A stretch of DNA of 39,944 bases. Source: a virus. Lineage: Duplodnaviria > Caudoviricetes. Where the stretch lies: positions 1 through 39,944 of the IMG/VR virus record IMGVR_UViG_3300033407_000052. One strand, written 5' to 3'. The notes beneath the pieces are model-generated. The model was given only the letters and a program-made list of their open reading frames with translations, was not told the origin of the DNA and did no database searches. This document shows, piece after piece, positions 3,505 through 39,582 of the stretch. Every line of letters begins with the position of its first letter. Within the stretch, counting starts at the first letter, position 1. A program made the translations under genes and the position numbers.

Positions 3505-3669
3505 ATGGAAGCTCTCGACCCTGACGATGAACTGGTTGAGGGCATCCACCCCATCAGAAGGCTCTATGTGAGGCTTATTCTAGCTGGGATAGGTCAATAT
3601 GCTAAGTGGCATGAAGAACAATTAGAGCTAGGTGAGATTGAGGATGAGTTAAGTGATATAGTAGATTAG
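3505..3669 (+). CDS. Acidic hypothetical protein (54 aa)
   Basis: MEALDPDDELVEGIHP...SDIVD fills the gap after the membrane protein. Weak RBS. Confidence 0.4.
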   Translation: MEALDPDDELVEGIHPIRRLYVRLILAGIGQYAKWHEEQLELGEIEDELSDIVD

Positions 3670-4084
3670 TACTTTAAAACCACTGGGGAAGTTTAGTTTA
3701 GAAGGAGTTTAGTTATGTCAAATAAACCAGTAAGTCAAGACGACACCACGCTAGGACAAACTAGCGATACCTACGATGATACAGCCTCGTATCTAGCGGG
3801 TGAATTGAGAAGTAACGCAAGTTACACTCTAGGCAGTATCTTAACGGTACTCGAAGCGTCAATAGCCGATAAAAGTCAGCTAGAAGCCATTAAGTCACTA
3901 GTTCGTAAAGAGCTTTTCTTAATGACTGACCGCAACCAAGGAGCGGTATACGAACGAGCGAAGATGCAACGCAGTGGTCTTTCTCCTAAAAAGTACATAG
4001 AATTCAAAGACTCAAACGGTGAGTACGAGGCTCACTCAATCCAATAATAATTTATTAACCACTTCCCCAGTGGTTTTAGAGTAC
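3669..4084. repeat. 24-bp inverted repeat (3669-3692 / 4061-4084) enclosing one gene
   Basis: gtactttaaaaccactggggaagt versus the reverse complement of acttccccagtggttttagagtac: 23/24 match. Confidence 0.9.
3715..4047 (+). CDS. Hypothetical protein inside the inverted-repeat cassette
   Basis: GAAGGAG RBS, 110 aa, helical core. Confidence 0.75.
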   Translation: MSNKPVSQDDTTLGQTSDTYDDTASYLAGELRSNASYTLGSILTVLEASIADKSQLEAIKSLVRKELFLMTDRNQGAVYERAKMQRSGLSPKKYIEFKDSNGEYEAHSIQ

Positions 4085-4539: not shown

Positions 4540-4689
4540 TTATCCTCCTATTACTTTTTGAAATTTAGTTATTCCTTCTACCTTGGCGGCTCGTTTTATG
4601 TAGTTAATAAAGGCCGGTGAATCCGATGTCCAAGTGTACCAATGTCCATCTTTAGGTGAGTATCCTTTATACATCATTAGTTCGCTCAT
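4540..4689 (-). CDS. Hypothetical protein (49 aa)
   Basis: ATGA-coupled to the upstream gene. MSELMMYKGYSPKDGHWYTW... Confidence 0.6.
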   Translation of the reverse strand: MSELMMYKGYSPKDGHWYTWTSDSPAFINYIKRAAKVEGITKFQKVIGG

Positions 4690-5012
4690 TGTTTTATTAG
4701 CCCTGCTTTAATTAGGTTCTGGCGAATTTTATAAGTTGCGGCATTGTGACCAGCTATATATCTTTTAGCCCCTTCGCCATCATCGCCCATTCCTTCTAGC
4801 TCTTTCGGCAACGCTGCTTCTATAAGCGACTGGATGGCTGCTTCGGCTTGGTCTATCATCGGTATTCTAACCTCATAGCAATACTGGCATTGAGCTGGCA
4901 TGAGGTCTCCATCCTCGTCTGCCTCGGGGTAGGTTCCTTCGCCATCACAACCAGCAGGACAGTAGGTTTTCGGCATCGACTGTTCTAGGATGTCTCTAAG
5001 CTTCTGGCTCAT
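4686..5012 (-). CDS. Helical-scaffold family protein with CxxxC...CxxC insert
   Basis: KLRDIL / QAEAAIQSLIEAALP / GHNAA framework around a Cys-containing insert. Confidence 0.7.
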   Translation of the reverse strand: MSQKLRDILEQSMPKTYCPAGCDGEGTYPEADEDGDLMPAQCQYCYEVRIPMIDQAEAAIQSLIEAALPKELEGMGDDGEGAKRYIAGHNAATYKIRQNLIKAGLIKQ

Positions 5013-5137
5013 GATTTACCTTTCTTCTTGCCATGATTAGCTATCGGCTGTCCACAAGCTACACAACAGGCTACGCCATCTATGACGGTAGCAGTATGAG
5101 CACCGCCATCGTTATAGTTTTTGGTGCAAGGTTTCAT
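5009..5137 (-). CDS. Small Cys/His protein (42 aa)
   Basis: ATGA-coupled at both ends. MKPCTKNYNDGGAH...CCVACGQP. Confidence 0.6.
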   Translation of the reverse strand: MKPCTKNYNDGGAHTATVIDGVACCVACGQPIANHGKKKGKS

Positions 5138-5394
5138 GGCTTTTCCTTCTGGTCTGAGAGGGCTTCGAGGCGGTAAATTCTATTAGCTATCATGTTTAGA
5201 TGCTTTGGGCGTGGAAAACCAGACGTGGCAAGTACCGATTTTAGCTCATCAATCCTAATTTCCCTCTCCCTCGCCTCCAGCTTCTTGGCTAGTTCGGGGA
5301 TAAACTCTCCAAGCTCGACTACCGCTTGTTTATGGTGGGCTCGGGTTAGCGTATCTTCTAGCCACTCTCTCAGGGTTTGTTCTAGGGTAGTCAT
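5134..5394 (-). CDS. Helical-scaffold family protein (EQTLREWL type)
   Basis: Start reassigned to ATG 5394 (ATGA overlap). Shares three blocks with 5974-6564. Confidence 0.75.
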   Translation of the reverse strand: MTTLEQTLREWLEDTLTRAHHKQAVVELGEFIPELAKKLEAREREIRIDELKSVLATSGFPRPKHLNMIANRIYRLEALSDQKEKP

Positions 5395-5507
5395 TGGTTT
5401 ATTCCCAAAAGATAGCCAATAGCAGCACCAAAGAGCATACAACCCAAACAAAGGTTTACTATTCTAGCTTTTAGTTTTTCTACATCATCTGTTTCGTAAT
5501 GGCTCAC
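5391..5507 (-). CDS. Small membrane protein (38 aa)
   Basis: GGGAG RBS plus GTG start, hydrophobic C-terminus, coupled at both ends. Confidence 0.6.
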   Translation of the reverse strand: MSHYETDDVEKLKARIVNLCLGCMLFGAAIGYLLGINQ

Positions 5508-5620
5508 GATTCACTCCCTTCAACCTTACGGGCTATAGATATGCCAATAAAAACACTCTTAAACCATATACCGTACACTCTATGCCATTCTCCTAGAGAT
5601 TGACCTGTAAAAACTTTCAC
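5504..5620 (-). CDS. Small protein (38 aa) bounded by 20-bp direct repeats
   Basis: MKVFTGQSLGEWHRVYGIWF...EGSES. tcacgattcactcccttcaa occurs at 5504-5523 and 5617-5636. Confidence 0.6.
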   Translation of the reverse strand: MKVFTGQSLGEWHRVYGIWFKSVFIGISIARKVEGSES

Positions 5621-5632
5621 GATTCACTCCCT

Positions 5633-5731
5633 TCAATTTATTAAGCAACGTTTTTTATGATAGGTGCAAGGTACAGTCATTTGAGCTAGACAGCTAGCCA
5701 CTTGGCATTGATGGCAACTATTTTGATACAT
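5633..5731 (-). CDS. Cys-rich peptide (32 aa)
   Basis: AAGGAG RBS. MYQNSCHQCQVASCLAQMTVPCTYHKKRCLIN. Confidence 0.45.
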   Translation of the reverse strand: MYQNSCHQCQVASCLAQMTVPCTYHKKRCLIN

Positions 5732-5960
5732 CACTCACTCCTTCCCAATGATTATTCCGCTCAAAAAAGTCATAGCAAGCGACAGGAACTTCGGTAATCG
5801 TATGCTTGGCATAGTAGGCACACCCTTGTTCTTCTTGTTTTTTCTCTCTAGCCTTTCCTTCTGAGTAGCCAGAGAAAGCAGCCCCAGCAATCAGCAAGAA
5901 CCCTACAATCATTACTGTTGCTAATGTTCCATTACTCATACCTTCTTCTACTACCATCAT
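5718..5960 (-). CDS. Small membrane protein
   Basis: One TM helix, two Cys. Start could be 5939. Confidence 0.65.
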   Translation of the reverse strand: MMVVEEGMSNGTLATVMIVGFLLIAGAAFSGYSEGKAREKKQEEQGCAYYAKHTITEVPVACYDFFERNNHWEGVSDVSK

Positions 5961-5973
5961 CACTCACTCCCTT

Positions 5974-6564
5974 CTAGTTGTTTACGTTCCTCTTGGATGA
6001 AAAGTCTGGCTTCTCCTTTGGGTCTGAGAGGGCTTTGAGTTCGGCTATACGTTTTCCTCTGGACTCATAGCTTGCAGTGTAGTCTCGTAATCGCTTGGCC
6101 GCATCTTGGGGTGTATGTCCATCCCATTCAGCCGCTTTATCACGCTCCTCTATGTCAAATAGATACCAATCTTTTTCCTCGTAATGGTTGGTAATTTGAC
6201 CTGTGGGTAATTGTGCCACCACCACAAACCAACCTCCACCAAAAGCTAACTCCCCATCGCTGTGTCTCCAACTCTTGTGAATGTCGTAGTTCTGGTGTGT
6301 GCGGAATAACTCATTGAACATGGCTGCATTGTAGAGCATCCGATATTCGTAAAGCTCATTGAAGGTATGATAACCATCGCTTGTTTCGCCTGTTATTTTC
6401 TCCCTTGCCTCTAGATTCTTGGCTAGTTCGGGGATGCGTTCTCGTAGTTCGTTTCTGAGTTGATTCTCTGCTCCAGCCATAGCATTAATGACTGATATAT
6501 TCTTGGATGGGTCAAGTTTTATATTTTCTCCTAGCCACTCTCTCAGGGTTTGTTCGATAGTCAT
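5974..6564 (-). CDS. Helical-scaffold family protein carrying an inserted 'SDGYHTF...WDGH' domain
   Basis: EQTLREWL / IPELAK.LEARE / ALSD.KEKP framework around a ~110-aa domain with a recurring phage motif. Confidence 0.8.
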   Translation of the reverse strand: MTIEQTLREWLGENIKLDPSKNISVINAMAGAENQLRNELRERIPELAKNLEAREKITGETSDGYHTFNELYEYRMLYNAAMFNELFRTHQNYDIHKSWRHSDGELAFGGGWFVVVAQLPTGQITNHYEEKDWYLFDIEERDKAAEWDGHTPQDAAKRLRDYTASYESRGKRIAELKALSDPKEKPDFSSKRNVNN

Positions 6565-6794
6565 AGCTCCTCCACTGGCATTATGGGTGCTCTTAATTCC
6601 AGTCGGTCAAACGAAACCATTGGCTTTGCAGAACTTATACCACGCTTCAGTCCTAACCACTCAAAGGGCATTTCACATTTCGCACAATTAACTTTTATAT
6701 CTACTGCGAACGCATTGACTGCTCCACCATCGACATCGGTTAGGCGATTAATTTCTGCATTTACCTTGAAGTTGGGGTGTTGGCATCTACTCAT
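6561..6794 (-). CDS. Zn-ribbon-like hypothetical protein
   Basis: CxH...CxxC, ATGA-coupled. Confidence 0.7.
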   Translation of the reverse strand: MSRCQHPNFKVNAEINRLTDVDGGAVNAFAVDIKVNCAKCEMPFEWLGLKRGISSAKPMVSFDRLELRAPIMPVEEL

Positions 6795-7060
6795 AATCCC
6801 AGCCCCCTACGTTCCTCTTGGATAGCAGAGTCGGGAATTGATTTAACTTGCAGGACTTTGCCGTCATAGAGTTTGTAGCTTCGGCTGCTTCGTTTCTTCT
6901 CCAGCCTATCCAATAGCTCGGCTTGGGCGGTGGTGAGGAGAGACATAATCTCGTCTAATCGGTAGCGACACATTTCTTTGCACCGCTTCTCTTCGCACAT
7001 ACCAGTAATTTTGCGTATCTTATCTCTCAGCTCATTGTTAGTATCTAGGGGCTTGGTCAT
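6791..7060 (-). CDS. Helical-scaffold family protein (MTKPLDTNNELR type)
   Basis: Start reassigned to 7060. Three blocks identical to 12089-12475. Confidence 0.8.
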   Translation of the reverse strand: MTKPLDTNNELRDKIRKITGMCEEKRCKEMCRYRLDEIMSLLTTAQAELLDRLEKKRSSRSYKLYDGKVLQVKSIPDSAIQEERRGLGL

Positions 7061-7260
7061 AATTTCCTCCATTGCTCTAGCCATTCAATTACTTCTTTAG
7101 CTTGGCATGAACCGCATCGTTGCCACTTCTTAGTACCCATGAGATTTTGTGGTTGGTCTGGGCTATCTTCATAGTCCATCGTTTTACAGTTTCCACCCCA
7201 GCCTTTACTTATCCGCCACTTGACGAAAATGATGGCTAAGTGGTCTAGTAAATTAGTCAT
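7057..7260 (-). CDS. Hypothetical protein
   Basis: 67 aa, C...CxxC, coupled. Confidence 0.65.
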   Translation of the reverse strand: MTNLLDHLAIIFVKWRISKGWGGNCKTMDYEDSPDQPQNLMGTKKWQRCGSCQAKEVIEWLEQWRKL

Positions 7261-7534
7261 GGCTTACCTCAATCGGTGTTCCATCCTTAGGCAGCTGAGT
7301 TGCTCCAATAACACCATATTCAGGGTCAAAGCCATCCATTCTCTCTCCGTACATTGTGTAGTCTTTCCCTAGCTCCTTTAGAACTTCATCTTTCGTCTTC
7401 CCTTTGGCTACAGCACTCTTAATAGATAAGATGCGTTTTGGCTTTTTATCGGACACTACCCGCTCGGCAGTCTCGTCCCATCCGTACCAAGTATCACCAA
7501 TCTTTTCAACTATCCAGACATTATTAGCACTCAT
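7253..7534 (-). CDS. Hypothetical protein
   Basis: Probable start MSANN at 7534 (TGATG overlap). Confidence 0.65.
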   Translation of the reverse strand: MSANNVWIVEKIGDTWYGWDETAERVVSDKKPKRILSIKSAVAKGKTKDEVLKELGKDYTMYGERMDGFDPEYGVIGATQLPKDGTPIEVSHD

Positions 7535-7671
7535 CAGCAAATCCCCCCCTTTACACATTTCCAATAGTCCTCATCAGATAGGGTACTCACCCATTGAGCA
7601 TAACCCAGCAAGCCGAAGATAACTCCGACGATTACGGCTAGGGTTAGGAGGATGCGGTCTTTGGGATTCAT
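7534..7671 (-). CDS. Small membrane protein (45 aa)
   Basis: MNPKDRILLTLAVIVGVIFGLLG..., fills the gap with coupled start and stop. Confidence 0.6.
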   Translation of the reverse strand: MNPKDRILLTLAVIVGVIFGLLGYAQWVSTLSDEDYWKCVKGGIC

Positions 7672-8057
7672 AAAATCCCTCTCTTTATAAGCTCAATCGC
7701 TAAAAGACATAGAGCGTCGGCGGGGGTGTCGGCAACTCCGAAACAGTATGCCGTAAAATCTTCCCCAACTGGATAACCTACATTCCATACTGGGTAACTA
7801 TATTGCAAAGTTAGCAAATATTTATAGGTAGACCCATTTGATGATTGGACTTTAGGCAACTTCTCCAGCAGACAGTCTGAGTCGTAGGCTGGAGTATTGC
7901 TAGTTATGGATTCTCCCGAGATTTTGGTTGGTGAAGGATAACTAAAACCAGCTTCTTTAACAGCACTTTCTGGCTCGTTATACCACCAGTAGGTATCATC
8001 CCACTCAGGCTTTAGCTCATATAAACGCTTTGAATTTTGAAGGCTAGCGACTCTCAT
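7668..8057 (-). CDS. Hypothetical phage protein
   Basis: 'SL..SKRL.E...PAY...LLEKLP...TPADAL..L.I.L' pattern common in small phage early proteins. Confidence 0.7.
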   Translation of the reverse strand: MRVASLQNSKRLYELKPEWDDTYWWYNEPESAVKEAGFSYPSPTKISGESITSNTPAYDSDCLLEKLPKVQSSNGSTYKYLLTLQYSYPVWNVGYPVGEDFTAYCFGVADTPADALCLLAIELIKRGIL

Positions 8058-8296
8058 TTCTGCTCCTTTGACTTGGCGGGGATAATACCTGATATTTCAG
8101 ATTCTCTTAATCTATCAACGTAGCTTTCTCTGGTCACAAGATAAGTCCATTCATCATTATCATATTCACCACTGCCCCAGTGGTAGCTAATTCCTATAAT
8201 CGACCCTGCATATTTTCTGCCATGTATACCAATTTCTGCATAGACAATATCGCCTATGCTATATTTTGGCGACCCTAGTTCTGATAGCTTTCTCAT
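8054..8296 (-). CDS. Small SH3/KOW-like beta-barrel protein
   Basis: 'PKYSIGDIV...G.I......Y.V......ESEI' pattern. Confidence 0.6.
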   Translation of the reverse strand: MRKLSELGSPKYSIGDIVYAEIGIHGRKYAGSIIGISYHWGSGEYDNDEWTYLVTRESYVDRLRESEISGIIPAKSKEQK

Positions 8297-8649
8297 CACT
8301 CCTCCAATCCTAGCTCACGCCTTAGTTCGGCTATATCCTGCTGAATTATATCTGCACAAACTTCGCCAATTTCCACTACTACATCTCTGGTTGGATTTTT
8401 TGCATCTTTAGGTATTTCAGTTCTTCGCAATACTCTAGATTTTGCCTGTTCCATGCCTTCTATCCTAGCCCTAATCTCAGCTTCCCTAACCTTCTCTTTG
8501 GAGATGTAGCGGTTGAGGATGGCTTGTTTGGCTTTGGCTAATCTTTCTCTACCAATTAAATCATCTACGAAGTCTTGACTTTCAAAGCCGAACATTAGTA
8601 TCTCATCTAGCTCTTGATCGTCTGTAGTAGGTAGAGGGGCTTTACCCAT
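8296..8649 (-). CDS. Helical-scaffold family protein
   Basis: Probable start 8649. LDEIL / AKQAIL / IAELR framework. Confidence 0.7.
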   Translation of the reverse strand: MGKAPLPTTDDQELDEILMFGFESQDFVDDLIGRERLAKAKQAILNRYISKEKVREAEIRARIEGMEQAKSRVLRRTEIPKDAKNPTRDVVVEIGEVCADIIQQDIAELRRELGLEE

Positions 8650-9013
8650 ACATTGCCTCGTTCTCTCTTTCAGTACCCTCGTCATAGCACTTCTGACAGT
8701 AATACATCCAGTTTCTAGGCAGACTATTATGCTCTTGGGCATCAATCCCTTTAGGCAACTGTCCTACTACCTTACGCTTGGTTCCACAAAAGGAACATTT
8801 GGGCATAAAATTGCTTTCAATATCGCCCTTCCACCAATCTAGGTGTTCTTTTATCGCCTCCACTTCTCTATCCTTAATGAGTTGGAGGATGGCTTCTTTG
8901 GTTTGGTTATCCGAAGCTCCGATTAAATGGTCGGTTCTTATACCTCGTATCCACTCCCTATGCTGTTTGAGTATCTCATCTATAGCTTCATCAGTATTGA
9001 GGGGTTTACTCAT
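8642..9013 (-). CDS. Helical-scaffold family protein with CxxC...CxxC domain
   Basis: MSKPLNT..IDEIL / TKEAIL framework followed by a Zn-finger-like region. Confidence 0.7.
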   Translation of the reverse strand: MSKPLNTDEAIDEILKQHREWIRGIRTDHLIGASDNQTKEAILQLIKDREVEAIKEHLDWWKGDIESNFMPKCSFCGTKRKVVGQLPKGIDAQEHNSLPRNWMYYCQKCYDEGTERENEAMYG

Positions 9014-9183
9014 TACTTCTCCTCAGCCTTAAGAGGCGTATAGGCTATGCCTACTTCGAGTTTTGATATTTTTGGCCATATTATGATTGTGTAGTTTTTT
9101 GTTTTTATTGTTTGTTTTTGTGTGACAGTGAATACATCTGTCTGCTCGCAGTTTGAGCGTTTCCATAAATTCTTAATACTCAT
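9013..9183 (-). CDS. Hypothetical protein (56 aa)
   Basis: Coupled at both ends. MSIKNLWKRSNC... Confidence 0.5.
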   Translation of the reverse strand: MSIKNLWKRSNCEQTDVFTVTQKQTIKTKNYTIIIWPKISKLEVGIAYTPLKAEEK

Positions 9184-9314
9184 GGCTTATCCTTTCTAGC
9201 CCAATCTGGTTTATGCCAGGGCTTCCAAAATAGATGGTTAAATAGTTCCCACCGATCCCAAAAGACCTTATGGCATTTCGGACATTCATGATTGTGGGTT
9301 TCGATGTAGCTCAT
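9180..9314 (-). CDS. Single C2H2-type zinc-finger peptide (44 aa)
   Basis: HECPKCHKVFWDRWELFNHLFWKPWH = C-x2-C-x3-F-x5-L-x2-H-x6-H. Confidence 0.6.
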   Translation of the reverse strand: MSYIETHNHECPKCHKVFWDRWELFNHLFWKPWHKPDWARKDKP

Positions 9315-9315
9315 A

Positions 9316-9426
9316 CTAGCCCTTCTTCCTAAACTTAGCTTTAATCTTGCTTAATAATCCGTAATCTTCAAGAAATAGCGGGTAGTCAGTGAGGGTGTAG
9401 AGTCCTTTGGTTGGTTTGGGTTTCAT
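9316..9426 (-). CDS. Small basic protein (36 aa)
   Basis: AAGGAG RBS, ATGA-coupled. Confidence 0.55.
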   Translation of the reverse strand: MKPKPTKGLYTLTDYPLFLEDYGLLSKIKAKFRKKG

Positions 9427-9692
9427 ATAAGTCTCCTTTGAATTGGAGTCACTTGCCAGAATTTAGCTGTTCTCCCTGTCCGAGACTTATCTTTGTAGGC
9501 AACCTCAATTTCGTTCATCTCAAACAGCTCCCTCGATCTTCCAGTCACTCGGTTTATCTCCCAACCTAAGCCGTCAGCTATATCTAAGTTGCAGACGGGA
9601 CCATGCTCCTGAATAAACTTAAAGACCGCTAGTTGTTTTTCGCCTACTCGTTGCAGGGTGTCATAGGCCTTTCGTGAAGTATCAGCTAGCAT
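9423..9692 (-). CDS. Winged-helix DNA-binding protein
   Basis: 'VCNLDIADGLGWEINRVTGRSREL' HTH plus 'SRTGRTAKFW' wing. Start at 9692 after GGGAG. Confidence 0.75.
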   Translation of the reverse strand: MLADTSRKAYDTLQRVGEKQLAVFKFIQEHGPVCNLDIADGLGWEINRVTGRSRELFEMNEIEVAYKDKSRTGRTAKFWQVTPIQRRLI

Positions 9693-9900
9693 TTTTTGAC
9701 TCCCCATTTTTAACGCCTTTACGACTACTGGCACTTCCCCCTTTAGCTCCAGCTAGCCTTGCCAGTTCTCGGTTAGCGGCGAATCCACCTGTTGTACCTA
9801 CCTTCCCGCCGACAGCCCCGATACGAGAGTAAAAGTCTTTTCCGTGTCGTTTCTTATTAGTCTCGCTTGCCTTTATCCCGCCTTGTTTTGTGCCTCCCAT
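9682..9900 (-). CDS. KGG-repeat stress-induced-like protein
   Basis: 'HGKDFYSRIGAVGGK...ELARLAGAKGG' KGG motifs. Confidence 0.75.
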   Translation of the reverse strand: MGGTKQGGIKASETNKKRHGKDFYSRIGAVGGKVGTTGGFAANRELARLAGAKGGSASSRKGVKNGESKNAS

Positions 9901-9901
9901 C

Positions 9902-10405
9902 TTATTCACTCTTTTCACGTTGCTTTAATATAATGTCCTCGATACTTGGGAAATTGACATGAAGCCCGAACTTTTCTCCTATGTGTCGGTTGATTGTTTC
10001 AAAGACCTCATCAATTTCTACAGTCGTTAATTCAGTAGTTGATTCCTTGCCTAGTTGCGCTTTTTGAACTGGTCGCCATAAATGTTCTTTGACGGTTTTA
10101 TCGTTCCAGTCGATAGCGATCTCCGGCTTTAGCACTACTCGCATATCAAGTCCAGCATCATTGAGTTCGTCTGCTAACAGTCTGAACAGGACGTGCAAGG
10201 CTTTGTTTTGCTGGTTTGTTCTTGGCGGATAGGTTTTAGGCTCAAGTTGGTCGTAAAGTTGCTTCTTTCTTTCAAGCTCGGCTCGTTCCCGTGCTAGGGC
10301 TGATCGGAATTGTGGAGTATCAGTTGGGTATTTTTCAGCACTCTCGATTTGGGCTTCCATCATTTCAATTTCCTGTTTCAGATCGTCACGGTTAGGACTG
10401 CTCAT
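9902..10405 (-). CDS. NinB/Orf-like recombination accessory protein
   Basis: 'RTNQQNKALH...STTELT..E' motifs, downstream of the exonuclease. Confidence 0.6.
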   Translation of the reverse strand: MSSPNRDDLKQEIEMMEAQIESAEKYPTDTPQFRSALARERAELERKKQLYDQLEPKTYPPRTNQQNKALHVLFRLLADELNDAGLDMRVVLKPEIAIDWNDKTVKEHLWRPVQKAQLGKESTTELTTVEIDEVFETINRHIGEKFGLHVNFPSIEDIILKQREKSE

Positions 10406-11016
10406 TAGAAGGCCAACCTTTCTACAATTTCGTCAACTTCTTTTAACTGCTTTAGTTGGAATTGCAAGTATTTCTCTGGCAAGTCTGCTAGTTGTTCACG
10501 AGTAATTATGATTACTTTAAATGGACAGGTGGCGATTCTATCGTCATAAAATACAAAGTATAGTTTTTCAAGGTCAGGGTTCACAATGAAGTATTGAAGC
10601 ATCTGAGCCTCGAACTCGTCAGGTACTTTGTCCTCAACCACCGCTTGCAAGTGCCGGGCCGAACTCAAGCATTTGATTTCTATGGCTTCGGTGTATTTAC
10701 CCTTGTTCTTGATTAGGCCGTCCGGTGAGTTGATGATATTCGGGTACTTGTCATGTACGCAGATACCGACTCGCTCAACCTTCTTGTCCATGCTCTTTTC
10801 AAACATATCGACTACGTGTTCCTCCAGTCTCAGTCCTCGATCCATGCGATTCTCGTCGTCAGGTTCGATGGCTAATCTTTGGGCTATTAGTTCATAAAAG
10901 CCAATCTTCCGCCCGCCTCTCTTTGAGTAGAGTTGGGATAGCATCGTGCCACTAATTTTGCCCTTGCGGTATTCTCTCCATTCGTCACTGCCTTGTTCAA
11001 CATCAATTACTTTCAC
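10405..11016 (-). CDS. YqaJ / lambda-exonuclease family nuclease
   Basis: 'QGSDEW..YR.G.I', 'SPDGL', 'EIKC' and 'Q...Y' motifs. GTG start 11016 after AGGAGG. Confidence 0.9.
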   Translation of the reverse strand: MKVIDVEQGSDEWREYRKGKISGTMLSQLYSKRGGRKIGFYELIAQRLAIEPDDENRMDRGLRLEEHVVDMFEKSMDKKVERVGICVHDKYPNIINSPDGLIKNKGKYTEAIEIKCLSSARHLQAVVEDKVPDEFEAQMLQYFIVNPDLEKLYFVFYDDRIATCPFKVIIITREQLADLPEKYLQFQLKQLKEVDEIVERLAF

Positions 11017-11497
11017 TGAGAGCCTCCTTGCGGACATTCTTGGCATCCACAACCTTCTGTTCGGCAATAAGTGGCCCAAGTCCCATAAATACCTTTTTTA
11101 GCTCGTCTAGGGTCTTAGCATCGTTGATCCGTTCGATGGCTTCGTCAATTTTCTGGTTCTGGTAGTCGTAGAACTCTTGCATTTCCTCACTTGATGCAAT
11201 TTCACCTGACGCTAGATACCCAAGCATAGCTAATGCTCTACCGACAGCGATACTCTCCAGCTTTTCAAAAGCCTTTGCTCCGGCGTTTTTACCGAGGGCG
11301 TGTCCGGTAGCTTCGCCTGATTCTGGTTTGGCCTTATCCTTGAGGACTCTAGCTTTGAACATAATTTGACCGTCTTCTTGGATCGTGGGGGTGGTTTCGA
11401 TTAGACCATTGGGACAATTCTCCCTAAACTCCTTGAGTCGATCTGCTACTTGTGCGTAGTTCTTGCCTTGTAGGTCGATTGTTTTTACTTTACTCAC
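11003..11497 (-). CDS. Single-strand annealing protein (Rad52/Sak-like)
   Basis: 'YAQVADRL..F...P.G.IET...EKLESIAVGRALAMLG', adjacent to the exonuclease. Confidence 0.7.
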   Translation of the reverse strand: MSKVKTIDLQGKNYAQVADRLKEFRENCPNGLIETTPTIQEDGQIMFKARVLKDKAKPESGEATGHALGKNAGAKAFEKLESIAVGRALAMLGYLASGEIASSEEMQEFYDYQNQKIDEAIERINDAKTLDELKKVFMGLGPLIAEQKVVDAKNVRKEALSESN

Positions 11498-11510
11498 GAT
11501 TCATCTCCTT

Positions 11511-12089
11511 CTAGTTGTTTACGTTGGTTGGTCCCCTTTTTAGCCTATAATCTTTTTTCTTAATCTTAACCATACGTCCGTCTGGGTGGTGCCAGACTAA
11601 GCCTTCAATGTCTTTATCTTCGAGCCACTGTTTAAGTGCTTCAAACTCAGTAGGTACATCTTCGTAAGTCTCGGCGTCACGCATGAAATCATGTAGGTAG
11701 TGTTTCTCGGAGTGTTCGGGGTTGCCTTGTACTTTTGGCCCTAGAAGTTCATACGGGCCGTCTGGTAGGTCAACTTTGTCAGGGTTGCCACCGACAGCTT
11801 CTCTGTGCCATTTATCTTCTGAGCCGTTACCGACCTCAACATAGCCCATGCTCTTACCCGTAGTTTCATCACGGTCTACTAGCTCGAAGCCATAGGGAGC
11901 TTCCCGTCCTTCCCTAAGCTCGTATCGCTTGTATAGTTTGCCATCTCGAACAAGGACATTAGTGCCGTCATACTTACGGGTAGCAACGCCCCCGCCAGCC
12001 ACGACCCAGTCAGTACCATCAGAATACTCAGCTATGATTGCTCCGTGGTTGCTAAAGTCTCGCTTAAATAGTGTTGGTATCTTTTTCAT
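11511..12089 (-). CDS. RLIG1/C12orf29-like (DUF5565) RNA ligase, copy 1
   Basis: Nucleotidyltransferase motifs KYDG, YELLGPKVQGNP and IEGLVWH..DG.MVK. Confidence 0.75.
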   Translation of the reverse strand: MKKIPTLFKRDFSNHGAIIAEYSDGTDWVVAGGGVATRKYDGTNVLVRDGKLYKRYELREGREAPYGFELVDRDETTGKSMGYVEVGNGSEDKWHREAVGGNPDKVDLPDGPYELLGPKVQGNPEHSEKHYLHDFMRDAETYEDVPTEFEALKQWLEDKDIEGLVWHHPDGRMVKIKKKDYRLKRGPTNVNN

Positions 12090-12475
12090 CACTTATCTCC
12101 TTTAAGTTGTTTACGTTCCTCTTGGATAGCAGAGCGAACTTCATGCTCAAATGTTATTGCCATTTTGCTTTGCTCAAATTGGTCATGTTGTTTGGCGAAA
12201 TCTATCGGGTCTTCGGGTCGCCCATAAATCATATTGGCTTCTGTTCGGGTTATATCGTACTTGTCTCTAATGCTCCTGACTTTAGGCTCCAGCCTATCCA
12301 ATAGCTCGGCTTGGGCGGTGGAGAGGAGGGTCAGAAGGCGTTCAACATGTTTATTTGGAGCATCATCTGATAGATTGCCAGCTCTAGCTTTAGCTATAAT
12401 CCATGAACCATATTCTGTGACCTCTTGATAGATTTTCCTTCTCAGCTCATTGTTAGTATCTAGGGGCTTGGTCAT
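12089..12475 (-). CDS. Helical-scaffold family protein (MTKPLDTNNELR type)
   Basis: Three blocks identical to 6791-7060. Confidence 0.8.
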   Translation of the reverse strand: MTKPLDTNNELRRKIYQEVTEYGSWIIAKARAGNLSDDAPNKHVERLLTLLSTAQAELLDRLEPKVRSIRDKYDITRTEANMIYGRPEDPIDFAKQHDQFEQSKMAITFEHEVRSAIQEERKQLKGDK

Positions 12476-12870
12476 TTTAGTAATTCTCCATTTTCGTAGA
12501 TGTTACCGATAACTTCAATACTAACTTCTTCATCACCGATGGCTTGTCCTAGTTGCTGAAAACCAAGAGGCAAGTACCAAGCCGTATAATCTTCGTCCCA
12601 CACCACTTCTGAATTTAAGTCTGAATAGTGTCCAGCGAATCCATTATCAGAATCTGTGATTATGCGTACCACGTCCCCCTCATAAATCTCTTTGCCGTTT
12701 TTGTCTTTTAGACCAGTGAATTGCATAAGTTCTACAATCTTATTGAGATTTTTTAGTGGGTCGGCGTTAGTGTAGATGTCGCCATCAAGACTTATACACC
12801 AGTTGGGAAATGCATAATACATCTTGTTATCGTCTTTATCCCACGCTCTAAATTTAATTGGTCTGCTCAT
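12472..12870 (-). CDS. YopX family protein
   Basis: 'IKFRAWD', 'MQFTGLKDKNGKEIYEGD', 'EVIGNIYEN'. Confidence 0.9.
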   Translation of the reverse strand: MSRPIKFRAWDKDDNKMYYAFPNWCISLDGDIYTNADPLKNLNKIVELMQFTGLKDKNGKEIYEGDVVRIITDSDNGFAGHYSDLNSEVVWDEDYTAWYLPLGFQQLGQAIGDEEVSIEVIGNIYENGELLK

Positions 12871-13136
12871 AATCTCCCCATTTCTACTCGATTAAAGGTT
12901 TCTGCCGGGCTTTCCTCGCTCCACTCCTCACGGGTCATACCGTACAATCCCCACAAGGTAGGCGAAGAAGCGTCACAATCCTCGCACTCGTACCAAGTCC
13001 CGTCCTCGTTCTCGTCTTTGAGGATGCGGTCATGTTCGCAAGCTGGTTGGTTAGGACAGTCGGACTGGTCGCAAGGGTAGTCCTCGCACAGTTCGTGCTT
13101 CATGTCGTTGATGGCTATTTGGTCTAGGTCGCTCAT
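12867..13136 (-). CDS. Acidic Cys-rich chimeric protein
   Basis: N-terminus identical to 13536-13766, C-terminus homologous to 13219-13536. Confidence 0.75.
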   Translation of the reverse strand: MSDLDQIAINDMKHELCEDYPCDQSDCPNQPACEHDRILKDENEDGTWYECEDCDASSPTLWGLYGMTREEWSEESPAETFNRVEMGRL

Positions 13137-13222
13137 CTGATTGCCTTAATTCTAGTTACGATGCCTTGATATACCTGTACTTTAGTAGTGCTGTTTAGTG
13201 GGGCTTTGGGGTAGATTTTCAT
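13133..13222 (-). CDS. Small peptide (29 aa)
   Basis: ATGA-coupled at both ends. Confidence 0.45.
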   Translation of the reverse strand: MKIYPKAPLNSTTKVQVYQGIVTRIKAIR

Positions 13223-13536
13223 AGCTGCCCCATTTCCGTCCGGCTATAGGTTTCGGCTGGGGTTTCTTCGCACCATTCTTCCCGGGTCATGTCGTATAGT
13301 TCCCAAGGCTCATCAGCAGTCTTGTCGCAGAGTAAGCAAGTGTAGCTGAACCCATCGCTATAGTCCGCCACTTCTACTTGATGTCGTGGGTGGTCGCAAG
13401 CTACGTTGTTCTCGTCCACACTCTCGTGAGCTATGTCTTCCATGAGATTGTTAAACCAGTTGCCGAGAGGATTGCTCCATTCGTCTGGTTGGCTAATAGT
13501 GTACGCATAGAGTTGAGTGGCTTTAGGCTTTGCCAT
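13219..13536 (-). CDS. Acidic Zn-binding-like protein
   Basis: CDH...CxxC, C-terminal 'MTREEW.EE.PAET'. Confidence 0.7.
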   Translation of the reverse strand: MAKPKATQLYAYTISQPDEWSNPLGNWFNNLMEDIAHESVDENNVACDHPRHQVEVADYSDGFSYTCLLCDKTADEPWELYDMTREEWCEETPAETYSRTEMGQL

Positions 13537-13766
13537 TATAAGCCTAGCCAGCCCTCTGCATAGGTCCGCGCTTCTTGCTCAGTATCAAATACTTGAGGCA
13601 AGGTGTAGGACTCTGCGCCGGACCAGTGCTTTTCTTGAATTCTTACGTGGAAGCCATAAGTACCATGCTCGATTTTGTAGGTAGGTGGCTTACACTCCCT
13701 GCATGGGTTAGTATCACAAAGCTCGTGCTTCATGTCGTTGATGGCTATTTGGTCTAGGTCGCTCAT
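13536..13766 (-). CDS. First gene of the early operon, hypothetical
   Basis: Directly downstream of the leftward promoter, AAGGA RBS. Confidence 0.75.
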   Translation of the reverse strand: MSDLDQIAINDMKHELCDTNPCRECKPPTYKIEHGTYGFHVRIQEKHWSGAESYTLPQVFDTEQEARTYAEGWLGL

Positions 13767-14327: not shown

Positions 14328-14624
14328 ATGGAGAATCGAATGTCAACCCCAATCTCGCAAGTTCTGAATTCAAACAACAATGTAACAATGTTAATTAAAA
14401 CTAAAAACAACAATGTAACAATGAACAATGTAGATCACTTGAAAGTAGATTACATTGCTAACAAGCTAGTCGAGCTGTTTAGTAACCCGGTAGCCAAAAA
14501 CTTTTATTGCAAGGTTGCCTATAAGCTACCAGAAGGCACTATTTGGGATTTAGTAGAGCAGTCCAAGACTGGAGATTATCCAGTTAAACTGTTTACTTGG
14601 TTATGCAAGCAAGCTGGAGTGTAG
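14328..14624 (+). CDS. Small putative replication/origin-binding protein
   Basis: Contains iteron-like repeats, helical C-terminus, first rightward gene. Start may be 14340. Confidence 0.5.
   Translation: MENRMSTPISQVLNSNNNVTMLIKTKNNNVTMNNVDHLKVDYIANKLVELFSNPVAKNFYCKVAYKLPEGTIWDLVEQSKTGDYPVKLFTWLCKQAGV
14372..14430 (+). repeat. Iteron-like repeats (possible origin)
   Basis: aaacaacaatgtaacaatg at 14372-14390 and 14405-14423 (33-bp period). Five AACAATG heptamers. Confidence 0.75.
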
Positions 14625-17153: not shown

Positions 17154-17708
17154 ATGAAGAAAATACCAACACTATTTAAGCGAGACTTCGCCAACAACGG
17201 TATGATAACCCCTGAGTATTCTGATGGTACTGAGTGGGTACTAAATGGAGAGGGCAAAGCTACCCGTAAATATGACGGTACTTCAGTACTGATTCGTGAC
17301 GGAGTAATGTACAAGCGATATGAAGTTAAACCAGGCCGTGAAGAACCATACGGATTTGAGCTTGCAGATGAAGACAAGACTACTGGTAAGAAAATGGGCT
17401 GGATTGAGGTTGGCAACGGCTCAGAAGACAAATGGCATCGTGAAGGCTGGGAAAACCTAGACGAAAGCCTAAAAATCAATGGCACATACGAATTGGTTGG
17501 GCCAAAGGTTCAAGGCAACCCAGAGAAGTATGAAGACCATAGGCTCATCTGGCATGAAGATGCTCAAATACTACTTGATGTTCCTGTTGAGTTTGAGGCT
17601 CTAAAAACATGGTTAGAAGACAAGGACATTGAGGGTATTGTTTGGCACCACCCAGACGGACGTATGGTCAAGATTAAGAAGAAGGACTACAGGTTAAAAC
17701 GTGCCTAA
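17154..17708 (+). CDS. RLIG1/C12orf29-like (DUF5565) RNA ligase, copy 2
   Basis: KYDG, YELVGPKVQGNP, IEGIVWH..DG.MVK. Roughly 70% aa identical to copy 1 by hand alignment. Confidence 0.75.
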   Translation: MKKIPTLFKRDFANNGMITPEYSDGTEWVLNGEGKATRKYDGTSVLIRDGVMYKRYEVKPGREEPYGFELADEDKTTGKKMGWIEVGNGSEDKWHREGWENLDESLKINGTYELVGPKVQGNPEKYEDHRLIWHEDAQILLDVPVEFEALKTWLEDKDIEGIVWHHPDGRMVKIKKKDYRLKRA

Positions 17709-18090
17709 AGCGACTATCTGGATCAGAAAAGACAACGAGAAAGCTTGGGAAGCTATTAAGAATAAGTCTGAGTGGGTTAATGAGCGATTGACTGTCGAGT
17801 ATCAGTTCAGTGAGCAAGGCTTCGCTAAAGTAACCGACGATCCGAACACAGTTAATGAGGTCAAGACTATTAAAAAACCAATCAAGTGGCGTGGCAAGCT
17901 TGGAGTTGATACCGTTACTGTGTACGCTGTCGATTCAGTTGAAGAAGGAGTAACAATCCCCGATGACAAAGACCTAGTTAAGCTAAACTCAAAGAAACCA
18001 GCTTATACATTGAAGGATAAACTCTGCAAAACCCACAGCCTACCAGTTTTAGTAGGTCGCACTATTTGTGGACAGAAAGGTTGCAAATGA
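17701..18090 (+). CDS. Ribbon-helix-helix-like protein with C-terminal Cys/His cluster
   Basis: 'MPKATIWIR...AWEAI.NKSEWVNERL' strand-helix-helix pattern, CxxH...CxxxxC tail. Confidence 0.55.
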   Translation: MPKATIWIRKDNEKAWEAIKNKSEWVNERLTVEYQFSEQGFAKVTDDPNTVNEVKTIKKPIKWRGKLGVDTVTVYAVDSVEEGVTIPDDKDLVKLNSKKPAYTLKDKLCKTHSLPVLVGRTICGQKGCK

Positions 18091-18368
18091 AAATCACCGA
18101 GATATTAGATGACTTAGGCGAATCCTTTTATCCATTACATGAATACCCAGACCAACCAATCTATACCGACAGAAATAAAGAGGCTATTGCGGAAGCCCGC
18201 CAAGCCCTACACGCAGCCACTATAGCGGTGTTGCCTGAACCCTATGATATGGAGTATGTGGTAGAAAGAAATATTGGCGGTACATCTATAGCAATCGCAG
18301 AGGGTTTTAATGAAGCACTAGACCAAATGAAAGCCGCTATAGATGAGCTTTATGAGGTAAAGGAATGA
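18087..18368 (+). CDS. Helical-scaffold family protein
   Basis: ITEIL / AEARQAL...VLPE / GFNEAL framework, like 4686-5012. Start 18087. Confidence 0.65.
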   Translation: MKITEILDDLGESFYPLHEYPDQPIYTDRNKEAIAEARQALHAATIAVLPEPYDMEYVVERNIGGTSIAIAEGFNEALDQMKAAIDELYEVKE

Positions 18369-18505: not shown

Positions 18506-18669
18506 AAGAGAGATTCTTGAGAACAATCAGTATTATTAAACATTTTCTTACTAAGAAACGCCAGCAATTTTGTAGTAAAAGTTGTGCTGCAATTGAACGT
18601 GGCAGAAAGGGATTAAATGAACGACCAAGACAAGCAGAAACTGGGCGATTTAGCAAAGCAGTTGCCTGA
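18502..18669 (+). CDS. Small basic protein with FCSxxC half-site, possibly a remnant
   Basis: 'RQQFCSKSCA' lacks a partner CxxC. Overlaps the next ORF by 53 nt. Confidence 0.35.
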   Translation: MKERFLRTISIIKHFLTKKRQQFCSKSCAAIERGRKGLNERPRQAETGRFSKAVA

Positions 18670-18841
18670 GCTACAGCGTATTGCCAAAGCTCTTTGGGGA
18701 GAAGAATACATAGATACAGGCGTACCAAATGGAGCGGTGTGGCAAGAAGAAAACATTGAAGAGTTAGCATGGCAATACCACCTTCAGAACATGGTGATTA
18801 GTGAAGACCCCATAAAATACCTCGGAGATAACCTAGATTAA
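18617..18841 (+). CDS. Hypothetical protein
   Basis: AAGGGA RBS, 74 aa. Confidence 0.6.
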   Translation: MNDQDKQKLGDLAKQLPELQRIAKALWGEEYIDTGVPNGAVWQEENIEELAWQYHLQNMVISEDPIKYLGDNLD

Positions 18842-35343: not shown

Positions 35344-36219
35344 ATGAAGCTCAGCACATTCTATACAAGAACATCGTATGCCTTGAGAGGTAACGATGAA
35401 GAAAGCCCTGAACACGGCAGTGAAGAAGCAACTTATTGGCTCTCCGTTCTTAATCAGAAGATTGAGGAGCTTGCTCAAGATGTCACAAAACAGTGGAGAT
35501 TTACGTTTAAGGAAACCGCCCCCAACGAACCCGGAACTGTAGCAACTACCGCAACCACTACCCTAACTGGAACTTCTACCAACTTCCTAGATTACCGAGT
35601 AGGGGATAAAATTACTGTATCCGGCGAAACTGTCCGCACGATTGCTACTATCACTTCTGACACTGTTTTAACTGTTACGGTAGCGTTTTCTAACACCGCC
35701 TCAGCTAAGACCTTTACTTTGGCTACGATCATCGCTACTGGTGTTGAAACCTACAGTCTACATAGGAACTTCCTAGCTCCCTCAGATAAGGTCTATATCA
35801 CGACCACCGGTGATAACAGGGTTTACTTTGACATAATCCAACCTCAAGAGCGTACTACTGAAACTCAAAATGTCTTCTTATCTGACGAAAGCCCCGAAAC
35901 TATCAACTTCTCAGATGACATAGAATCCACTAACAACATAGTGGGCGGGACTTTGACTGTGCCAGGATATTACTCTCCTGCGGCGGTAACGGCTACAACT
36001 GATGATTTACCTGTGCCTGACCCTAACTGGGCGGTGTATATCGTGGCAAGTGAAATCGCCGAAAACGACATCACATATGAAGACAAATCGGCCAATTTAA
36101 ATAATAAGGCCAACTCTTTATATAGCATGATGATTCGTAGAAATCGCAGGGGTACATATAACAATCCTAGAACATCTACTTACAACGTAAAAAGAATCAG
36201 AAACACGGAGACACAGTAA
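35344..36219 (+). CDS. Putative head-tail adaptor with inserted beta domain
   Basis: Helical termini, 'TGVETYSL' and 'TDDLPVPD' patterns, precedes the tail tube gene. Confidence 0.55.
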   Translation: MKLSTFYTRTSYALRGNDEESPEHGSEEATYWLSVLNQKIEELAQDVTKQWRFTFKETAPNEPGTVATTATTTLTGTSTNFLDYRVGDKITVSGETVRTIATITSDTVLTVTVAFSNTASAKTFTLATIIATGVETYSLHRNFLAPSDKVYITTTGDNRVYFDIIQPQERTTETQNVFLSDESPETINFSDDIESTNNIVGGTLTVPGYYSPAAVTATTDDLPVPDPNWAVYIVASEIAENDITYEDKSANLNNKANSLYSMMIRRNRRGTYNNPRTSTYNVKRIRNTETQ

Positions 36220-36905
36220 TGCCTAGTGGCTCAAAGAACGGAATGTTCGGCAAAAAACACTCCCCTGAGACTATTGAGAAGATACGACAGGCTCATTTAG
36301 GCAAGAAGCTGTCTGAAGAACATAAAAAAAAGGTAGGCTTAGCTGGAATAGGAAGAACCCCCTGGAATAGGGGCAAATCTCACACACCCGAGACGGTAGA
36401 AAAGATGAAATTAGCTAACACTGGCAATAACAACGGTATGTATGGTAAACGCCATTCACCTGAGTCCATAGAGAAAATGAGACAAGCCAAGCTAGGTAAA
36501 AAACACACAAAAGAGCATAACGAAAAGATTGGCATTAGTGGAAAAGGGATTAAACCATCCGAAGAAACTAGATTAAAAATGAGTCTATGGCAACGTGGTG
36601 AGGGACATTGGAACTGGCAGGGTGGCAAAACAACTAAAAATGCCCAAGAGCGTAAATACTTTTCTACCGTAATAGGTCCTAAAGTCTTTGCTAGAGATAA
36701 CTATACTTGCCAGATATGCGATGAATACTGCGGCGATTTACACGCTGATCATATCAAAAGCTGGGCTAAATATCCCGAATTACGCTTTGAGATTGACAAT
36801 TGCAGAACACTGTGCCGTCCTTGCCACTACTATGTAACCCTTAAAAAGAAAATGCCACCTGGCTCTAGGTGGGGGATTAAAAGACATGCCGTATACCCTA
36901 AATAG
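36219..36905 (+). CDS. NUMOD3-repeat HNH homing endonuclease
   Basis: Repeated 'GKKHS.E..EK.R.A', 'RDNYTCQIC...LHADHI...NCRTLCRPCH'. Confidence 0.9.
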   Translation: MPSGSKNGMFGKKHSPETIEKIRQAHLGKKLSEEHKKKVGLAGIGRTPWNRGKSHTPETVEKMKLANTGNNNGMYGKRHSPESIEKMRQAKLGKKHTKEHNEKIGISGKGIKPSEETRLKMSLWQRGEGHWNWQGGKTTKNAQERKYFSTVIGPKVFARDNYTCQICDEYCGDLHADHIKSWAKYPELRFEIDNCRTLCRPCHYYVTLKKKMPPGSRWGIKRHAVYPK

Positions 36906-38958: not shown

Positions 38959-39582
38959 ATGCCTAAACAAATAAACTACTGCAAAGTCGAAGATTGCGAA
39001 ACTCGTTGTCATGGTAATGGGCTTTGTGTAAGGCATTACAAGCAGGTGTATCGACATGGGAAAGTATTTACTACTATTTACGAACCTCGTAAAGCTATCC
39101 TTAGAAAAAATGATGCCCTTATCCCGTTGGGTGTAGAGGCGAAAGATGGCTATGCTATTGTGGACAGAGAATACGCTTACTTGGATAAGCACAAGTGGGT
39201 ACTCGTTGACGGTTACGCAAAGACTACCCCTAATCGTTCAGGGACTGTTGGTATGCACAGGTATATATTAGGCGATAAGACAGGGTTCGAGATCGACCAC
39301 AAGAATGGTAACCCCTTAGACAATCGAAAAGACAATCTGCGACACTGTACCCACCACCAGAACACGCTTAACGCAAGAGGTAAACGAAGCAATGAATATA
39401 AAGGCATTTACCTTCACAGTAACGGGAAAAAGTTTGCCGCACAGATTTCATTCAGAGGTAGAACTTATTATCTTGGGTTATTTATAGATGAAAAGGAGGC
39501 CGCACTGGCATACGATAAAAAGGCAAAAGAGCTACACGGAAAGTTCGCTAGACTGAACTTTACTGAAGGGGGGGTAGTCTAG
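38959..39582 (+). CDS. HNH endonuclease with AP2 domain
   Basis: 'MHR.I......IDHKNGNPLDNRKDNLR', 'YKGI......F.AQI......YLGLF..EKEAA.AYD..A..LHG.FA.LNF'. Own TATAAT at 38937-38942. Confidence 0.92.
   Translation: MPKQINYCKVEDCETRCHGNGLCVRHYKQVYRHGKVFTTIYEPRKAILRKNDALIPLGVEAKDGYAIVDREYAYLDKHKWVLVDGYAKTTPNRSGTVGMHRYILGDKTGFEIDHKNGNPLDNRKDNLRHCTHHQNTLNARGKRSNEYKGIYLHSNGKKFAAQISFRGRTYYLGLFIDEKEAALAYDKKAKELHGKFARLNFTEGGVV

Follow-up and report, generated by a model that had tools for sequence, protein, structure and literature searches.

Identical coding blocks around unrelated middles in a small phage gene pair point to a helical protein family probably shuffled through short homology arms

Introduction

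How can two genes of one phage be identical to the letter in three short coding stretches and show no relationship in the segments between them? This question is raised by two small genes, here named gene A and gene B, on the IMG/VR virus record IMGVR_UViG_3300033407_000052 (Duplodnaviria; Caudoviricetes). The record is a single contig of 39,944 nucleotides (nt), which was analyzed in its whole length and is referred to as the window (G000 among the genomes compared). Both genes show the order C1-V1-C2-V2-C3, in which three constant blocks (C) enclose two variable middles (V). An original prediction, made from the letters of the DNA, interpreted this arrangement as a three-helix scaffold with two exchangeable loops, in which the constant blocks double as recombination arms of a diversification system not described so far. 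The analysis presented here suggests that the pair probably belongs to a family of small helical phage proteins that has no name so far, and that the constant blocks of this family probably function as short arms of homology in recombination. In other members of this family either of the two middles was found to be replaceable alone, with the break located at a block.

Results

Constant blocks and variable middles of the gene pair

The three blocks reported in the original prediction are present on the minus strand and are identical between genes A and B over 36, 35 and 23 nt (Table 1). The middles are unalignable, as had also been stated: compared with shuffled sequences, their similarity reaches p values of 0.43 and 0.36 for DNA and of 0.30 and 0.22 for protein. 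Both reading frames stay open despite the unequal middles, because the differences in length amount to 27 nt for V1 and 84 nt for V2, both multiples of three. All of the 30 whole codons within the blocks are identical, for which the chance is approximately 10^-13.6 if synonymous sites are saturated, and the four middles, approximately 141 codons in all, contain no stop codon (chance approximately 0.001). Ten direct repeats of at least 18 nt were found in the window, all of them between 5282 and 14423, and none in 20 shuffles of the window.

The original prediction further claimed that ordinary drift of paralogs cannot give zero synonymous changes next to total divergence. Two RNA-ligase-like paralogs of the same genome constitute an internal control, as they are 71% identical at the DNA level and alignable throughout, yet possess exact runs of 26, 26 and 22 nt. 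Exact runs alone are therefore not decisive; what is decisive is their alternation with unalignable segments, which ordinary paralogs do not show. The block and middle pattern of genes A and B is real. The blocks are rich in glutamate and leucine with a glycine content of 1.7%, the middles are not enriched in tyrosine and tryptophan (5.9% versus 5.4%, p 0.37), and gene A has no match in Pfam, PHROGs or NCBIfam.

Models were calculated with AlphaFold for gene B alone, with helices at 4-32, 39-84 and 93-126 (predicted local distance difference test, pLDDT, 74; predicted template modeling score, pTM, 0.43), and for gene A with 30 sequences, with helices at 7-20, 25-73 and 77-86 (pLDDT 77, pTM 0.43). 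In the models C1 begins helix 1, C2 is located midway in the long helix 2 and C3 lies within helix 3. Three helices are thereby predicted, as in the proposed scaffold; the middles are modeled mostly as helix extensions round short turns, and at this pTM the models do not support the proposed bundle with two loops. Fold searches returned generic helical hairpins only, with no E value under 0.001, a best Z score of 9.2 and Atlas scores under 0.9.

Replacement of single middles in related phages

As no other carrier of the pair's blocks was found, related phages were gathered via the candidate annealing protein, the terminase and the capsid protein of the window. These queries gave 8, 18 and 43 loci, respectively, and 40 stretches were taken. 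Via a C2-type motif 70 loci were added, with 34 matches to small open reading frames (ORFs), approximately half of which were judged by eye to be unrelated coiled coils. Dispersed exact repeats of at least 17 nt among small genes or spacers are present in 17 of the 47 stretches of relatives. In G001, G011, G012, G025, G032 and G041 the genes that contain these repeats are small, helical and of the three-block layout, and the block versions differ from phage to phage.

Exchanges of one middle were observed directly. Between L134 (genome G053) and L171 (genome G061) C1 is identical in 30 of 30 nt and V1 is unrelated, while C2-V2-C3 is 98-99% identical, with three synonymous differences, all in C2, and no replacement difference over 52 codons. 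Compared as whole genomes, G053 and G061 show four matches in family genes and three weak ones elsewhere. Seven matches with a total of 299 nt, all of which correspond to blocks or tails in two family genes, were found between G053 and G064 (40,000 of the 41,940 nt of G053 and all 36,002 nt of G064 were compared), and the three matches between G061 and G064 are all blocks. The other middle is replaced between G011 and G012, genomes that are mostly 97-99% alike: 162 nt over C1-V1-C2 of one gene are identical and are followed by an unrelated V2. At the protein level P0012 and L069:1164-1538 have C2-V2-C3 in common and not V1, and P0011 and P0013 possess P0012-type blocks with other middles. L152 and L163 contain an identical gene of 480 nt, and the family gene downstream of it keeps its blocks and differs in both middles. 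The proposal that the constant blocks act as exchange points, with each middle replaceable alone, is thus borne out at the level of the family; for genes A and B themselves no swap was seen, because the searches for further carriers of their blocks gave none.

Between phages with almost no other common DNA the blocks are 83-100% identical. The capsid type of the window is present in only 2 of the 15 motif-found records (2 of the 7 near-complete ones), and as the capsid type differs among these records the family is spread over more than one phage group. Of 81 family genes 57 overlap or directly adjoin the gene that follows, compared with 223 of 485 other small genes, and a ribosome-site-like motif is located in the last 22 nt of 71 of 82 family genes versus 226 of 517. 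For an alignment of 30 members, neither a Pfam or PHROGs family common to them nor a PDB match with an E value under 0.02 was obtained; profile searches miss such families because only approximately 30 residues are common. The literature covered, mostly outside subscription papers, described neither this family nor an arrangement of three coding DNA arms within small proteins of phages.

The densest array, with 28 dispersed repeats, is found in L099 (G025), where L099:6404-7093 encodes a family scaffold with a HIT domain fused downstream of it. In the AT-rich phage of L042 many exact repeats of 18-95 nt are located at small-gene junctions (L042:5080-8343); these repeats are a non-coding-junction version of the block theme.

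A wider block network in the same genome

The blocks of genes A and B belong to a more extensive network within the genome, which was absent from the original prediction and comprises a second three-block pair, genes C and D, and a repeated gene-end tail. The blocks common to genes C and D are 29 nt at 97%, 37 nt at 92% and 33 nt at 88% identity and hold a few synonymous and a few replacement changes. In gene D the V2 slot is occupied by a WDGH domain, a foreign domain captured between blocks. This domain is 82% identical over 114 amino acids (aa) to P0043, which has no blocks in its flanks; no paper on WDGH in a phage context was found. Two further tail copies are out of frame, and the one at the end of the WDGH gene is likely the relic of a deleted family member. 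The RNA-ligase-like gene located between genes A and B has a tail copy on each side; we infer that it was inserted at the tail, and it is likely a passenger gene.

Family membership and opposing evidence

The pair shows the layout of the family, i.e., three predicted helices and C1, C2 and C3 around two length-variable segments, as well as its gene-end coupling, with A and B each overlapping the next start. From this layout, the coupling, the position and a subtype profile it is likely that the pair belongs to the unnamed three-block helical family.

Several results weigh against this assignment and against the role of the blocks as recombination arms. A general profile built without window genes gives gene A 4.5-7 bits and gene B 3.7 bits or leaves it unlisted, which is below decoys. 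With the subtype profile gene A is the first of the non-seeds at 16.7 bits (E 0.0014) and gene B reaches 11.9 bits, while the highest-scoring of 2,085 reversed decoys reaches 9.9 bits (4,170 sequences scored; the other top rows are family members). This profile was built from four outside proteins, all with a second block of the LLD type, that were picked by eye for their resemblance to the pair. Block statistics were derived from 82 genes of 34 genome groups, a curated set composed of 65 profile hits (the other 12 of 77 were left out) and 17 genes chosen by eye, seven of which come from the window; L152 and L163, which are separate contigs, were grouped as one genome. In favor of the blocks, exact words of at least 18 nt are present in this set in 16 of the 104 within-genome pairs versus 18 of the 3,217 between-genome pairs, and 101 of 101 exact matches of at least 15 nt touch a block window of one or both partners, with block windows covering 46% of residues; these statistics are, however, partly circular because the set was curated by blocks and part of it was found via the C2 motif. 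No dispersed repeats of at least 17 nt were found in 30 of the 47 stretches from relatives. The gene at 11003-11497 gave no match to an annealing-protein family (Rad52, ERF, RecT) in any search, and the middles show an ordinary, slightly acidic protein composition. Carriers of C1, C2 and C3 elsewhere, for which the original prediction proposed to search, were found neither in phage nor in metagenome searches.

The searches for such carriers covered proteins, patterns and DNA. Both candidates of a word search were the window's own proteins, and a profile search of 1.84 billion representatives gave three matches, the pair itself (two) and one that BLASTP failed to confirm. The 524 pattern matches of a metagenome scan resolved to one locus, the window's own record, and viral scans for the blocks gave none. 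Among RNA data sets no carrier was found either, a result without bearing on expression. Cultured phages showed four weak matches to the pair (E 3-9), the 24 related-phage records examined showed none to its profile, and DNA searches in 41 and 15 related-phage records gave no match over C1, C2 and C3 proper. One 35 nt DNA match at 83% over the ribosome-site tail of gene B was treated as chance, and the 17 loci hit by the C2 peptide pattern were rejected, as all of them lie in unrelated proteins of approximately 500 aa with a single common motif. For donors of the middles, 61 segments were compared with 2.57 Mb of DNA, and no non-identical match was found apart from one common N-terminal module. 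This module of 35-45 residues, 58% identical, is fused before family genes in L030:4913-5569 and L167:3905-4282.

Discussion

A proposed route through short-homology recombination

The following mechanism is proposed as the likely one. In co-infection a Red-like exonuclease and an annealing protein would pair two blocks of 23-60 nt and exchange the intervening DNA, and repeated exchange would keep the blocks alike inside one phage population. The last block usually carries the ribosome site of the next gene and the stop-start overlap, so that half-gene and whole-gene swaps would leave the operon translated. No dedicated enzyme was found, and general short-homology recombination would suffice. 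Of a Red-like module the window contains the YqaJ-type exonuclease; among the relatives, G032 and G018 possess Rad52/22 or ERF genes, and in G025 a Rad52/22 gene directly precedes YqaJ. For Red-beta a minimal pairing segment of 23-27 bp is given in the available text of PMC3945230, and by this account the block lengths of 23-36 nt meet the minimum. The gene at 11003-11497 may encode an unclassified annealing protein. It belongs to the conserved family phrog_11717, with relatives in Lactobacillus and Bacillus phages.

Other explanations of the blocks

The blocks could instead be kept as DNA or RNA signals, such as a translation start, a coupling element or a protein-binding site, with the swaps being a side effect. 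Ribosome-site-like motifs in the C3 tails and stop-start overlaps are indeed far commoner than in other genes, and tail copies survive out of frame in the window. Nonetheless, this explanation appears distinctly unlikely: C2 is internal and equally conserved, block sequences vary by lineage, unlike one fixed signal, no block folds as RNA beyond its shuffles (z -0.99 to +1.57) or matches Rfam, and promoter-like and terminator-like counts are at chance. One further possibility is that the family is largely neutral or selfish, with common blocks spreading the genes by recombination and with middles that are weakly selected filler, i.e., a gene nursery and not a binding library. Stubs, relics and fusions (the tail relic in the window, the truncated first gene of L171 and the fusions of copies found in L099, L196 and P0010) would fit such a history, as would several close relatives without clear arrays and the lack of aromatic enrichment in the middles. 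As the four middles are stop-free and in frame and conserved WDGH and HIT domains are carried, we regard it as rather unlikely; it alters the function of the family only and not the swapping mechanism.

The breaks located exactly at blocks might also be ascribed to a dedicated site-specific or template-driven diversifier. This is very unlikely, since a Pfam search with 65 ORFs of a near-complete genome gave no hit to a reverse transcriptase, an integrase or an invertase, and the three blocks are mutually unrelated, in direct orientation and lineage-specific. That the pair is an assembly chimera is barely credible, even though it was found on a single contig and probably in one sample. The A and B proteins are letter-identical in JGI/IMG and ENA (probably from the same reads), and the block pattern recurs on numerous phage contigs that are independent of each other. 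Run X1 is a possible source of this DNA; in it C1 and C2 form separate contigs with depths of 26 and 21.5 versus 8.5 and 10 for unique sequence (contigs from approximately 75% of the run), i.e., two to three times the unique depth, as expected of two-copy repeats.

Comparison with described systems

In agreement with the original prediction, the layout differs from diversity-generating retroelements (DGRs), shufflons and CRISPR, the defining features of which are absent in the window. DGRs encode a reverse transcriptase and possess a template and a variable repeat of equal length that differ at adenines; the search of the 65 ORFs against Pfam gave no reverse transcriptase in the window, and the middles are unalignable and unequal in length. 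Shufflons and other invertase systems depend on a site-specific recombinase and on one recognition site in inverted copies, whereas the window has no Pfam hit to a recombinase and its three different blocks are all direct repeats. Integron cassettes are mobilized by an integrase at hairpin-forming attC sites; no Pfam hit to an integrase was found in the window, and the folding of the blocks, calculated with RNA parameters, is no better than that of shuffles. A CRISPR array consists of one regularly spaced, non-coding repeat, and the blocks of the window lack such a repeat.

Systems based on recombination are closer. In the gp38 adhesins of T-even phages glycine-rich motifs separate hypervariable segments, and exchanges often occur in or near the motifs, as described in the available text of PMC3157838. 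According to this text, conserved motifs alternate with variable segments inside a single gene, as in the family presented here, and gp38, an adhesin of the virion, is present once per genome and has a receptor role that is known. In contrast, this family comprises several small non-structural helical paralogs per genome, its middles are unalignable and may be whole domains, its blocks are common to phages of different capsid type, and these blocks are rich in glutamate and leucine instead of glycine and have no PHROGs hit. PeSL cassettes in the hyperplastic regions of T4-type phages contain short repeats that drive modular shuffling of non-essential genes (PMC2839356, available text). As described there, these are promoter and terminator cassettes, whereas the family blocks encode protein, are located within genes and allow half-genes to be exchanged; PeSL-type sigma-70 promoters and terminator stem-loops were found at chance counts, with one 9/12 promoter-like site overlapping C1 of gene A on the opposite strand.

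In mosaic phages homologous exchange was reported at conserved boundary sequences of approximately 25-35 nt near gene ends (PMC3029335), driven by Rad52-like recombinases (PMC3945230), both as given in the available texts. On this description the C3 tail and C1 behave alike, while the family possesses a third, gene-internal arm, and the three arms together encode a single protein scaffold that recurs in paralogs. Domain mosaicism, i.e., fragments common to otherwise unrelated phage proteins across taxonomic lines, is summarized in the abstract of PMC10684548, which names receptor-binding proteins, endolysins and replication proteins and is silent on fixed DNA arms in small proteins that lack annotation. 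The family works like gp38, PeSL and boundary-sequence exchange, yet belongs to none of these systems, and is best described as a variant of recombinational shuffling.

Genome setting and further features of the window

The genome encodes a terminase, a major capsid protein, an M23 peptidase, the YqaJ exonuclease, two RNA-ligase-like proteins and YopX (Pfam/PHROGs), and the window is considered near complete because a tail-type gene appears to span both contig ends. No close cultured phage was found, the best identities being 24-31% for the terminase and 35-38% for the capsid protein, and the one match in a genome collection (49%) lies on a 4.2 kb contig. The host may be a member of the Patescibacteria, which is a mere guess of ours. 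The pair is located in a leftward run of tightly coupled small genes from approximately 13,800 to 4,400; promoter-like sites at 14346 and 13825 lie upstream of this run, and the counts of such sites do not exceed chance. The positions of the pair, its blocks and the other features are listed in Table 1.

Table 1. Positions in the window of the gene pair, its blocks and middles, related copies and neighboring genes.
Feature	Position	Strand	Remarks
Gene A	6791..7060	-	89 aa; C1-V1-C2-V2-C3; stop overlaps next start (ATGA)
C1, gene A	7025..7060	-	36 nt, codons 1-12; exact
V1, gene A	6934..7024	-	91 nt
C2, gene A	6899..6940	-	35 nt exact (6899-6933); 42 nt with one mismatch
V2, gene A	6831..6898	-	68 nt
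C3, gene A	6808..6830	-	23 nt exact
Gene B	12089..12475	-	128 aa; C1-V1-C2-V2-C3; tail with AAGGAG ribosome-site-like motif; overlaps next start
C1, gene B	12440..12475	-	36 nt, exact
V1, gene B	12322..12439	-	118 nt
C2, gene B	12287..12328	-	35 nt exact (12287-12321); 42 nt with one mismatch
V2, gene B	12135..12286	-	152 nt
C3, gene B	12112..12134	-	23 nt exact
Gene C, second pair	5134..5394	-	86 aa; best family-profile match of the window, 22-25 bits versus decoys of at most 14.9
Gene D, second pair	5974..6564	-	196 aa; three blocks common with gene C
WDGH domain (PF25311) in V2 slot of gene D	6049..6390	-	Pfam
Third C3-tail copy	5957..5998	-	23 nt exact, 36/42 versus end of gene B; out of frame, end of WDGH gene
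Fourth tail copy	11503..11525	-	21/23 versus 12095-12117; out of frame, end of RNA-ligase-like gene
Two more tail-like gene ends	5504..5636	-	20 nt identical (5504-5523 = 5617-5636)
Further likely family member	8642..9013	-	123 aa; profile 13-20 bits
Possible family member	18087..18368	+	borderline score; L023 relative at 36%
Possible family member	4686..5012	-	by eye; score below decoys
YqaJ-family exonuclease	10405..11016	-	PF09588, E 4e-16
Candidate annealing protein	11003..11497	-	from position alone; directly before YqaJ
NinB/Orf-like protein	9902..10363	-	phrog_72, weak match, E 0.0045
RNA-ligase-like gene between two tail copies	11511..12089	-	phrog_14301, E 3.7e-55

The RNA-ligase-like paralogs are located in inverted orientation at 11511-12089 (minus strand) and 17154-17708 (plus strand), and both belong to phrog_14301 and Pfam RLIG1; we take them to have a possible role in RNA repair as counter-defence, which is a guess on our side. 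A patchwork trio of genes is found on the minus strand at 12867-13136, 13219-13536 and 13536-13766, in which two genes have an identical start of 44 nt and the Cys-rich C-terminal part of the first gene is 45% identical in amino acids to that of the middle gene. The small conserved gene at 18617-18841 (plus strand) has close relatives in many related phages, with two copies in G012, and in these relatives, too, the ends are constant while the middle varies. A 24 nt inverted repeat (23/24; 3669-3692 and 4061-4084) flanks a gene of 110 aa at 3715-4047 and lies near the point where the transcription directions converge. Inside the virion gene cluster two homing-endonuclease-like genes, NUMOD3-HNH and HNH-AP2, are encoded at 36219-36905 and 38959-39582 on the plus strand.

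Possible function and significance

The most likely job of the family, which we put forward with some reserve, is that of a fast-changing early protein set acting on the host cell or its defences. Such an action is suggested because of the early position, the rapid turnover, the horizontal spread and the passengers (WDGH, HIT and RNA-ligase-like). The constant helices would supply fold and expression and the middles would supply specificity. A more far-reaching idea, possible although in our view somewhat doubtful, is that phages with a common host group and little else alike keep common coding arms as a community-wide plug-in library. A peptide or domain captured between the arms would become an expressed and folded early protein that is movable to unrelated phages, and this would constitute an enzyme-free, antibody-like source of anti-host and anti-defence proteins that originated repeatedly among phages.

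A large share of the gene diversity of phages consists of small early genes that lack annotation and originate fast. Here, phages were found whose only common DNA is the blocks of family genes, with recent half-gene exchange at these blocks. The blocks thereby provide a concrete and testable route by which new small proteins can be assembled and moved across phage lineages, and the family constitutes a natural library of candidates for counter-defence screens.

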